Source of the DNA: Saccostrea echinata
Taxonomy: Eukaryota
NCBI RefSeq assembly: GCF_033153115.1
Contig: NW_026889754.1
Coordinates: 14,880,001-14,944,000, forward strand
Direction: 5' to 3'
DNA length: 64,000 bases
The notes under the pieces were generated by a model. That model had not been told where the DNA came from, ran no database searches, and worked only from the letters and a program-made list of their open reading frames with translations. A program made the position numbers and the translations under genes. This document shows positions 36,347-40,381 of this stretch, piece by piece; the first letter of the stretch is position 1, and every line of letters begins with the position of its first letter.

Positions 36347-37302
36347 TTACTCCCTGAGAGGCCTGCCTCTACCTCTGCCTCTGCCGCGGAACTCTGTTCT
36401 GCCTGAGAAGGGAGGTCGCTGGTTAACGGTCAACGGCTCCATAAAGTCTGGCCTTCCGGGTGGGAGTGGAGATGAGTGTCTTGGAGGAGGTGGTCTCAAT
36501 CCTCGACCGCGAGGTGCTGCATATCTCGAACGCCTGCGTCGACAAAGAGGGCAGCATTGGTTCATCTGTACCAGCACAGCTGAACACTCGAGACAAGCCG
36601 GTCGACGGCGACACTGGCAGCAGATGTAGTTAGACATCCGATCCTCCTCCAAGCAAACTGAACAGGAATCCAGCCTGCCTGCCGTTACTTGAATCCCCCA
36701 TCTAGGAATTGACCCCGTAGTACTCGCACCTGGTGACATCTCCGGGGTCGGGGGTGGTGGTGGTGGTCTAGCCAGCTCCGGGGAGGGTGGTGGTGGTCTA
36801 GCCAGCTCCGGGGAGGGTGCCCAGTCATCGTTGACGGGAGAGGACCAATCCGAATCAACGGATGAAGAATCCCCCTGTCCAGCCCAATCGTTGTTAACGG
36901 GAGGGGTCCAATCCGAATCTACGGAGGAATCCACTGTCCAGCAGCTGCTCCCAGGGGATGACTGGGTGACCAGGTCGGCGTAGGTGGTCTTCTTGGAGGG
37001 GACGGGCTTCTCGGGGTGTTCTCGAGTAGTTCCGGACTACTCAGAGGGGCCGAATAGGAAGCAGCAGGTGATTCTGTCCTCCACCTCCTCCTTGGCTGGT
37101 CATCTTCGTTAGTAGAAGACCTATGTCGTCGTCTTCGTCTTCTTCGTCTACTTCTCCCCCTCATCAGGTCACTGGCTAGGCCCAGAGTGGCAATAGGCCA
37201 TCTAGCCAGCTCCCTCCCGGTGATTAAGTCCCGGACAATCCAGACATTTACGACCTCAACGCCATCAACCAAAAAGTAGTTAGGAATGTCTTCCTCAGCC
37301 AT
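36347..37302 (-). CDS. Pro/Ser/Arg-rich RING-finger protein (probably one gene with a frameshift at ~36930)
   Basis: CSVCLE...CCQC....CLEC.........CPLCR; GC-rich; repeats DSSVDSDW x2 and PSPELARPPP x2; upstream TATA-like site at ~37370. Confidence 0.7.
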
Positions 37303-38292: not shown

Positions 38293-38493
38293 TTATTTTT
38301 TCTTTAATAATTGTTCAAACTGTCGAATTCTCCTCTGAAATCGTAATCGATCTGCTACTATAGCCATCCATGGACTTTTTCGATCTTCGGGTGGTAAATG
38401 ATGAATTTCATTGAGGCTGGTATCAAAAGTTACACACTTGTGCCTTTTAGCATTTCTGAAATTCCCACATATTTCATCCCGTATTGGATGCAT
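38293..38493 (-). CDS. GADD34/ICP34.5/DP71L-like PP1 regulatory protein
   Basis: KCVTF (RVxF-type) followed by RKSPWMAIVADRLRFQRRI; the start could be 38556 or 38493. Confidence 0.85.
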   Translation of the reverse strand: MHPIRDEICGNFRNAKRHKCVTFDTSLNEIHHLPPEDRKSPWMAIVADRLRFQRRIRQFEQLLKKK

Positions 38494-38855
38494 ATTTTCT
38501 CTACCGCTTCTATTTCCTTCCAGAGTACAAATACTTTGCTCCCTTCGGGATGACATAGAAGACTGTAAGGTTTTCCTAAATATTCGCTCATTTTCATCCC
38601 GTACATTTTTTCTGGTAGAGTCTTTTTGATCCGTTTACAAAGGAAATGTATAATCGCTAGTCTCCCCACTGTCGGATGATGTAATAAAGCCAGGCATTGT
38701 AACCACAAGTCCTGAGTGTTTTCTATGATGGTCGTCGCTCTCTGGAACACTGGTTCCGCCTCCGGGGGTAAAGCTTCTTGATTTTTCTATATACATCGCA
38801 TTAAAAAATCATACCCTTCCAACACTAAAGAGTGAGTGTGTTTATGTGTTGACAT
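38430..38855 (-). CDS. Unknown protein (~141 aa, one internal TAG)
   Basis: ATG 38855 is in frame with the 38430-38750 ORF; TATAAATA at ~38893-38901 on the minus strand. Confidence 0.6.
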
Positions 38856-38929: not shown

Positions 38930-39133
38930 CAAGACGTACACAGTACGTACACCCATAATGTACTGACTGACTCAGCAAAACGTAGGTAAAACGAGAGAGG
39001 GGTACTAAGCGCGAGGGTACAAAACGTAAGTCAAACCTATTTTTGCACACGAAATCCAAAAGGGTATATAAACCAGAGCTGGAAATTTAGGATCATTCTT
39101 AGTGGGCACTTTGAACTTGACAGACGTAGAAAT
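38930..39133. promoter_or_regulatory. Divergent promoter region, inverted homolog of 17836-17962
   Basis: TGACTCA 38968, cgtacacagtacgtac, aaacgtaagtcaaac.tatttttgcac, and a leader ending in gacagacgtagaaatATGGCA shared with the left end. Confidence 0.8.
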
Positions 39134-39795
39134 ATGGCACAGGCGACGATGAATTCCGTGGAAAATCGTAATTATATTCCAGCTAGCAATGAAGGGTTAG
39201 GATATGCTCTACCGACAATGCCTGACACGCAGGATCCGATCGGATTTGATCTGGGACTTTATAATATGCCAGAACCCATGAGAAAGGAAGATATGGGCAT
39301 CTTAACCACCACTCTGGATGGCATTGTTAACATGCTGACTCAACTGAAAGAGTACAACACCAGTGAATTTTGTTTGATACGTGGGAAATTGTCCCGATTA
39401 GAAGTTAAAGTGGCTAGAATGGAAGAAAAAAATGAGAGGAAACTCTTACCAGAAAAATGAAAACACAGGAGCTGCCAAGAAAAGTAAACAGATAGACCCA
39501 TGTTTTATATGTAAAGAATTAGGACATTGGGCTCCGGACTGTCCCAGAAAAAAACAACTTATGCTACAAGTGTGGAAATTTTGGACATTGGGCCCATCAG
39601 TGCACAGATGACAGTATGGAATTTGTTAAAGAAGTCGAAAAACTGGAGAAAAAGGCTCAAGAAAACAAGACCACCCATCAGGAACATAAGACTAGTCAAC
39701 AGGATAAAATTCAGGCTAACAACAAGAGGAAACTTCCTGCTACTACAACCCAGACGGAGAAGAAACAACCCCTGAAACTCCAGAAGAAAAAGTAA
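39134..39795 (+). CDS. Right terminal protein: coiled coil, two CCHC zinc knuckles and basic tail (two frameshifts in A7 runs)
   Basis: CFICKELGHWAPDC at 39501 and CYKCGNFGHWAHQC at 39562; the last frame runs to NNKRKLPATTTQTEKKQPLKLQKKK* at 39795. Confidence 0.85.
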
Positions 39796-40129
39796 ATATT
39801 ATGGAATTTTTTGAATAAATCATCTTACAAACTTTTTTTTCTGTGTTATTGTTTTTTCCGTTTTCAGAAAATAGAGAGAGAGGCTTGCTCTGTGTGACAC
39901 ATGACGTCACAATGCATACCTAGCTGTGATTTGAATCGATGCCAAGTTTTTGTGTATTGCCTATGTATTGACTGACTCAGCGATTTTACAAACGTAGATC
40001 AAACGTACCCCCCTTTTTCACAAGACATGGGTTTTTCCATGGGTGTATACTAGATTGAACCGGCCATCTCCCCCAGGGGACAAAAAAGTGCACTCAGTTG
40101 ACCCACCCATCCAGGCTGCTAATACTACT
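39717..40129 (-). repeat. Right TIR of the Polinton
   Basis: Inverted copy of 17178-17578 plus an 11-bp extra gatcaaacgta. Confidence 0.95.
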
Positions 40130-40381
40130 GTGGTGGAACTTGTTTTATTGCGTGGACCCTGAGGTCCACGCAAAAAATATATAAGCGGGGTTAAACCAAA
40201 TGCCATGGGCGAATTCGAACAATTCGCCCTTTTCGAATTAGAATATGCTAATCATTGGCAAACATCGCTCTAAAATCTGCACATCGTATTTATGTATTCT
40301 TTGGCGTAACCAAAATCCGATTTTCTCTTTTATACATACATCCTTATATACAAACTAAATTCTATGGTACAAGCAATTTAA

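Follow-up and report, generated by a model that had tools for sequence, protein, structure and literature searches.

Matched outer repeats, a duplicated inner block and two unequal terminal genes in oyster Polinton/Maverick elements

Polintons (Mavericks) and Alpha adintoviruses are the closest described systems to the element reported here, and their core genes, terminal inverted repeat (TIR) sizes and accessory genes have been set out in several accounts (PMC8097293, PMC8502044, PMC6431247, PMC10294476, 10.1101/2023.08.22.554363, 10.64898/2026.10.13.758929). In the available text of one of these, Polinton TIRs are reported as 46-1447 bp (PMC8097293). Adenovirus and PRD1 resemble the oyster element in having linear genomes that replicate by protein priming and in the proposed pairing of their ends, by which each would restore the other; for protein-primed genomes, panhandle pairing of the inverted terminal repeats is presented, in the part of the source available, as a model for restoring end homology for which direct evidence is still lacking (PMC11886824). 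The oyster element shares with Polintons and Alpha adintoviruses, as far as the available text describes them, a protein-primed DNA polymerase B (PolB), a retroviral-like (rve) integrase, a packaging ATPase and a double-jelly-roll capsid (PMC8502044, PMC8097293, 10.1101/2023.08.22.554363), together with AGT-type ends, a 6-bp target site duplication (TSD), a length of 23 kb and a TIR within the reported range (PMC8097293). Unlike the Polintons described in those portions of the literature, in which we found no mention of such features, it has a terminal CCHC-knuckle gene, an unequal gene pair entering the TIR, a duplicated inner block that is probably a promoter, and whole-element palindromes among its relatives. 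Searches for a Polinton TIR zinc knuckle, an adintovirus CCHC protein or Maverick snap-back defectives found no describing paper; Repbase, subscription papers and supplements lay outside the search.

The window is a stretch of 64,000 nucleotides of Saccostrea echinata (NW_026889754.1, positions 14,880,001 to 14,944,000). At 17178-40129 it contains an endogenous Polinton/Maverick of 22,952 bp (~23 kb) with termini AGTAGT...ACTACT and the following features.

17172..17177: left TSD copy, GTGGTA, 5/6 identical to the right copy
17178..17586, + strand: left TIR (AGTAGT end), containing the 3' end of the left terminal gene L
17500..17835, - strand: left terminal gene L, 111 aa, open in the window copy, with a long helix and basic tail
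17826..17947, - strand: left inner block, between L and the diverging PolB gene; likely L promoter, leader and start
18072..22721, + strand: protein-primed PolB, in three pieces in the window copy
23411..23968, + strand: A32-like packaging ATPase (PF04665, E 2.9e-07)
26357..27442, + strand: rve integrase with chromodomain (PF00665, E 8.6e-11; PF00385)
28335..28520, + strand: internal upstream motif module before ORF 28546, 75-88% alike to other copies by self-BLAST
31673..33094, + strand: double-jelly-roll major capsid protein (ESM Atlas clusters)
34739..34870, + strand: second internal motif module, before ORF 34906
38293..38556, - strand: GADD34-like PP1-binding gene (PF10488, E 2.8e-06), diverging from the right terminal gene R
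39017..39143, + strand: right inner block; likely R promoter, leader and start
39134..39795, + strand: right terminal gene R, with N-terminal motif, long helix, two CCHC knuckles and basic tail
39501..39542, + strand: CCHC knuckle 1 (CX2CX4HX4C)
39562..39603, + strand: CCHC knuckle 2 (CX2CX4HX4C)
39709..40129, - strand: right TIR, containing the last ~28 codons of R and an AATAAA (39814)
40130..40135: right TSD copy, GTGGTG

The (AGT)n ends and 6-bp TSD are Polinton traits, the two TSD copies agreeing at five of six positions here and at all six in 19 of the 25 elements compared below. All three PolB pieces match PF03175 in Pfam (E 2.7e-20, 1.2e-24 and 3.3e-08). The capsid ORF had no match in Pfam and is assigned from the ESM Atlas, where it scores 0.98 to clusters in which 14-24% of members carry PF21738 and 0.95 to virophage capsid clusters. 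From position and motifs, 33094-33597 is a candidate adenain-like maturation protease and 29939-30658 a candidate minor capsid protein; the candidate protease had no Pfam or NCBIfam match and only a weak best PDB match, to the cysteine protease S273R (E 0.093), and the candidate minor capsid protein had no match.

Accessory genes resembling host modulators comprise a BIR-RING (IAP-like) protein at 22820-23362, a RING protein at 36347-36739 and the GADD34-like gene, and a macro-like protein with a weak DarG match (35613-36107, E 8.6e-05) is similarly host-modulator-like. ORFs 34187-34555 and 34906-35391 are tandem paralogs (73% DNA identity over 290 bp), one of which has a weak Viral_Rep match (E 0.008). 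Outside the element, window positions 2346-2650 and 3484-3682 are 78-81% like the 5' region of its PolB and are likely remnants of an older copy.

The two ends of the element match as inverted copies in two separate blocks. By self-BLAST the outer block (17178-17586 against 40129-39709) is 95.0% identical over 422 columns and takes in the last ~28 codons of L as well as of R. The inner block (17826-17947 against 39143-39017) is 90.6% identical over 127 columns (E 4e-44); it spans an upstream motif block, a TATA-like box and the leader, and reaches into ATGGCA. The DNA between the blocks gave no convincing alignment of the two ends. The original prediction had described just this layout, with ~400 bp of outer inverted identity that includes the last codons of both genes, different middles, and identity resuming at promoter, leader and ATGGCA. 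It had also given the left gene a coiled coil only, in agreement with a predicted single helix at residues 12-81 of L and the absence of a knuckle, and had placed two hidden knuckles in the right gene. Both motifs are there, and they are the only CX2CX4HX4C matches in six frames of the entire window, but the window copy of R is broken into three frames that change at A-runs near 39430 and 39550. The ATG frame (39134-39460, 108 aa) ends before the knuckles; a second frame holds knuckle 1, and a third holds knuckle 2 and, after it, the shared tail (39562-39795 for the two together). The ORF track therefore misses the knuckles, and it is sister copies rather than this one that carry both knuckles in a single frame, of 221-225 aa in 10 of 25 copies by script and in 11 when one copy missed by the tail pattern is added.

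A search of the oyster's own genome, in which 40 of 241 R candidates and 40 of 149 L candidates were scored, allowed 27 elements to be paired. We kept 25, dropping C25a, which has the TSD of C25b and is the same insertion seen twice, and C33e, in which the start of R is missing. L adjoins PolB and R adjoins the GADD34-like gene in 25/25, and the TSD agrees at five or more of six positions in 23/25. A further 23 L/R pairs lie 21-32 kb apart (coordinates only, hand count), and partner-end searches found the opposite gene type in 10 of 14 cases, with no end within the 20 kb fetched in the other four. The asymmetry, together with the TSDs, thus rules out both a mis-assembly and a one-off rearrangement, which had been expected to reveal themselves through sister copies with continuous TIRs; instead, every one of the 25 has unequal ends. 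Separately, an older, internally deleted element of 8.5 kb, with TIRs 79% alike and the L/R layout retained, was seen twice with an identical TSD (G000:C25:~676400-684900 and C25:~6795700-6804200), and C25:599138/6850544 is likewise one insertion seen twice; these repeats suggest a duplicated or doubly assembled region on C25.

Comparison of the 25 elements separates the outer from the inner block. In the outer block the distance between an element's own two ends is 0.043 and that between ends of different elements 0.124, with no permutation out of 20000 giving a within-element distance as low; an end's own partner is its nearest relative for 21/25 left and 20/25 right ends. The outer distance of C13 is inflated by a left terminus that was not located. 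The 75-bp coding tail behaves like the outer block (0.052 within and 0.087 between elements). The corresponding values for the inner block are 0.157 and 0.160 (p=0.11), the partner is nearest in 0/25, and the inner blocks of L ends resemble those of other L ends. The true TIR is accordingly the outer ~400 bp, coding tail included, which is kept matched within each element; the inner block lacks the mark of a TIR, in that the two ends of an element are no more alike there than the ends of different elements. Its distal ~38 bp are present at 25/25 R ends versus 10/25 L ends. Some inner-block variants occur on both sides of the alignment, which suggests occasional exchange between ends. Six columns of the inner block appeared diagnostic of side, some of them through alignment-edge effects, with one column in the 50-bp core.

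The distal inner block is part of a module that recurs ahead of two internal genes and, in truncated form, within the TIR. The copy at 28335..28520 carries the motifs TGACGTCA, TGACTCAGC, AAACGTA, TTTTTGCACAC and TATA. We take the inner-block motifs to be CRE-, AP-1- and TATA-like, and on these grounds the block is likely a duplicated promoter/enhancer. Contigs from sequencing runs (four runs presumed to be RNA, from at most three samples and two studies, library type unrecorded) lie on L, on R and on sequence upstream of each, and we draw nothing from them as to expression.

Eleven elements of other subfamilies were examined, two of them without PolB in the fetched span and one nested. Subfamily B (two elements) has TIRs of 369-444 bp and a 67-bp inner match at 87-88%; its left gene is a different, knuckle-less one of 102 aa, which lacks the shared tail and which the L profile finds at 27-32 bits. 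Among the six subfamily C elements with PolB, TIRs are ~80-120 bp and the left gene is absent from all six, and four of the six retain an inner match of 66-89 bp (92-97.5%), one copy of which lies immediately inward of the left TIR and the other ahead of the knuckle gene. This block is unlike that of the window's subfamily, the best local match being 8 bases. Since such a block differs from subfamily to subfamily, matches at the two ends and does not depend on a left gene, we regard it as most plausibly a regulatory module that is occasionally re-copied from one end to the other, rather than a remnant of a single event. The subfamily C block carries GGGTTTTTCC and GGAATTTCC (L146, L155, L157, L158; left ends L166-L175, L180-L181), which we take to resemble NF-kB/Rel sites, in place of the CRE/AP-1-like motifs of the window's subfamily, and Polinton subfamilies may answer to different host signals.

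R belongs to a family with a conserved pair of knuckles, which are the sole Pfam domain found in it (PF00098, E 2.1e-12, in the R of a sister copy). The two motifs are intact in 23/23 and 22/24 copies. Among codons 1-97 (24/25 copies), shared variants number 15 synonymous to 1 non-synonymous and private variants 13 to 28, and dN/dS between the window subfamily and subfamily B is 0.11, all of which points firmly to purifying selection on R while the elements multiplied. The model contains a single helix at 51-107, mostly with pLDDT >90, preceded by the motifs P[ED]SQD..GL.LG.Y and KEDF.ILTTTLDGI.N, and this N-half was found only in the R family. Homologues are named from three oyster genera, Saccostrea, Crassostrea and Ostrea, with about 20 more distant proteins bearing two or three knuckles; databases annotate them as uncharacterised or as Gag-like or snRNP-like host genes. 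Foldseek of R against BFVD gave no match at E <= 0.001, every ESM Atlas match was below 0.8, none of 96 pattern matches in viral contigs was confirmed, and one of 67 candidates in metagenome contigs belongs to the family. One frame of 212 aa (L161:7954-8592; G000:C2 near 10335900) joins a PolB-like N-terminus to the R-family helix and knuckles.

The closest solved structures to the R knuckles are those of retroviral NC/Gag (E 7e-08 to 1e-04), followed by TUT4 and Lin28. Like retroviral NC/Gag (PF00098), Lin28 and TUT4, R has tandem CX2CX4HX4C knuckles with aromatic residues and basic flanks, and from this motif class it is likely to bind nucleic acid. It differs from retroviral Gag in having a family-specific N-half, in being encoded by a DNA element and in lacking a matrix domain and, by both Pfam and the model, the capsid domain upstream of the knuckles that would mark a retroelement Gag. 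The tail shared with L (KRK...KLQKKK) resembles a bipartite nuclear-import signal.

L is less constrained. It is open to the tail in 22/25 copies by script and 23 by eye, and several alleles exist that are 56-66% identical to that of the window. Allele dN/dS values range from 0.51 to 2.28 and shared variants number only 3 versus 2 (20/25 copies), so that purifying selection on L is not evident. The pooled dN/dS of 0.92 was set aside as mixing alleles and post-insertion decay, and five of 25 L rows and one of 25 R rows were dropped from the variant counts as shifted or other alleles. Absence or replacement of L in some elements, together with the lack of clear purifying selection, marks it as a fast-changing, dispensable gene.

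Replacement of one whole end by the other is recorded directly in several insertions. In G000:C33:29109101-29132310, which has a perfect TSD and retains PolB, integrase and capsid, the right end has been replaced by 1.4 kb of the left end (96.7%), comprising an L-type gene, the promoter and the initial 488 bp of PolB. Two other insertions, both with perfect TSDs, are C40:4019946-4052115, where L stands at each end, and C5:6983518-7007642, which lacks L. Five further insertions of 18-28 kb, each with a perfect 6-bp TSD, are palindromic over all or nearly all of their length, their arms of 8-10.6 kb being ~99% identical.

G000:C12:12355703-12376789: palindrome, R at both ends
G000:C3:13644612-13665648: palindrome, R at both ends
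G000:C60:112393-134103: palindrome, R at both ends
G000:C85:563326-591166: palindrome, L at both ends
G000:C30:15598921-15617260: palindrome, L at both ends

These palindromes are built from right-arm accessory genes, and tblastn found no PolB, integrase or capsid in any of the five. Those of C12 and C3 turn round at a place matching the module at 34739..34870. A sixth is likely at C6:~5153700-5172600, implied by inverted pairs. At least three end types make more than one origin likely, and the palindromes are likely snap-back defective genomes moved in trans. One end copied over the other, and half-genomes that fold back into palindromes while retaining both origins, are familiar from the snap-back defective genomes of parvoviruses and AAV and from the mirror-image end duplications of poxviruses; the oyster palindromes differ in being integrated, with perfect TSDs, as several dispersed copies. 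As further observations, C54:~21797100-21806300 is partly palindromic, both tandem ORFs noted above are retained in the C12 and C3 palindromes, and the centre of C85 (L081-L083, ~9500-21000 of 30 kb) holds an insertion of ~11 kb with ORFs that by eye resemble a reverse transcriptase and a tyrosine recombinase (DIRS/Ngaro-like).

Whether L and R are paralogs with and without a binding module, as had been proposed, has evidence on both sides. They have in common the motif [LM]P[ED]TQD[SP]I; one L allele is intermediate, with NEGYALPETQDSI where R has NEGLGYALPTMPDTQDPI; the L profile (hmmsearch), run on a set of 184, places three R N-halves at 15 bits, with reversed sequences and decoys at no more than 6; and in L141, a distant metagenome element (32% identity), a degenerate knuckle gene occupies the L position, diverging from the PolB start (E 1e-09) and ending near a Polinton-type terminus. 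Against this, hhalign gave probabilities of 21.6 and 10.0, with 4 of 60 heptad-block shuffles scoring equally high, BLASTP of L against R found nothing beyond the tail, and 5' coding DNA similarity (24) falls below the shuffle maximum (37). Helical proteins also resemble one another by chance. Homology outside the tail is therefore moderately supported, and L is likely an R paralog that lost its knuckles. It is rather unlikely, in our judgement, that the two are unrelated, L being an independent coiled-coil accessory ORF that came to lie between the TIR and a promoter copy and gained the tail of R as the TIR expanded. The weak profile scores, the tailless left gene of subfamily B, the L-type genes found internally with their own tail in palindromic elements, and the lack of an L homologue among database proteins of 61-195 aa would all fit such an origin, but the common motif, the intermediate allele, the decoy margin and the arrangement in L141 would not. 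A longer ancestral TIR, as originally envisaged, with the whole knuckle gene at both ends, subsequent divergence or replacement of the left middle, and the inner block as what is left of the inner edge of that TIR, is possible but doubtful. The knuckle gene does lie inside continuous TIRs of 1.85-1.9 kb in G000 C8 (95.7%) and C13 (94%), it stands at the PolB end in L141, and the shared block of the window's subfamily extends into ATGGCA. However, the fetched C8 and C13 gave no PolB, integrase or capsid match and may be derived, the inner blocks of the subfamilies differ yet match between ends, for which one ancient event is insufficient, and the block is present where the left gene is absent. 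The longer TIR is also unneeded, the inner block being not homogenised and its module repeated internally. Such an origin is nevertheless compatible with the explanation we prefer, as the first source of L.

The suggestion that L co-assembles with R through the helix, tuning or poisoning its nucleic-acid binding, strikes us as improbable. Both proteins are predicted to form one long helix, would share a promoter and an import tail, and L is open in nearly all copies; but L is missing from all six subfamily C elements and from one of the window's subfamily, and an L without clear purifying selection beside a strongly conserved R helix is hardly what an obligate interface would lead one to expect. 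A predicted complex of R(25-105) and L(10-80) scored 0.02 in both runs, which, made without alignments or folded controls, weighs neither way. We give very little credence to programmed slippage at the A-runs of R, yielding knuckle-less and knuckle-bearing forms. The breaks do concentrate at two A-runs that differ in length from copy to copy, but ~11/25 copies are open, private variants look neutral, and the genes nearby are interrupted about as often (open in 3/6 for IAP, 7/12 for macro-like, 1/5 for integrase and 5/8 for capsid), so that decay or homopolymer error is explanation enough.

The preferred reading, to which we attach fair but by no means complete confidence, combines a matched outer TIR, a re-copied promoter, a conserved knuckle gene R and an optional paralog L. 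The outer TIR is matched continuously, probably because its two copies pair and are repaired against each other as the element replicates by protein priming, although homogenisation of this kind could also come from ordinary gene conversion between the two ends or from recombination among elements. It would have grown into the coding ends of R and L, so that R and L end alike in a basic tail predicted to serve as a nuclear-import signal. The duplicated promoter/enhancer would drive the terminal gene at either end together with the gene that diverges from it, which is PolB at the left and the GADD34-like gene at the right; its re-copying from end to end would be infrequent, with subfamilies as its time scale. 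R would be a nuclear, helix-oligomerised binder of single-stranded nucleic acid acting through its two retroviral-nucleocapsid-type knuckles, and L a stripped, optional paralog that lost them. Compared with adenovirus and PRD1, as described in the available text, the oyster element integrates, and its repeat extends into two genes, whose otherwise different proteins end in the same tail (PMC11886824). We infer its end-matching mechanism from comparison of copies alone.

A bolder proposal, which we hold to be improbable, is that the knuckle protein is a nucleocapsid-like strand-annealing protein of bivalve Polintons that coats the displaced strand and anneals the TIRs into a panhandle, with L as a knuckle-less decoy subunit. 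Single-strand-binding proteins do this work in adenovirus and PRD1, and no Polinton gene is known to be assigned to it. If the proposal were true, strand annealing would account for the homogenised TIRs, the re-copied promoter, the end-over-end replacements and the fold-backs of 18-28 kb, which would be integrated snap-back defective genomes mobilised in trans.

Two differing end genes are in themselves a modest variation on a known class of element, and it is the derivatives that form palindromes, and the role of the knuckle protein, that most deserve attention. With R comes a conserved but uncharacterised family of zinc-knuckle accessory proteins in oyster Polintons, a candidate for nucleic-acid handling. 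To our knowledge no animal Polinton has been watched replicating. In this oyster, dozens of copies record the interplay of the ends as continuous outer matching, rare promoter copying and whole-end or half-genome fold-backs, and the strand-displacement/panhandle model thereby becomes testable from the sequences of the copies.
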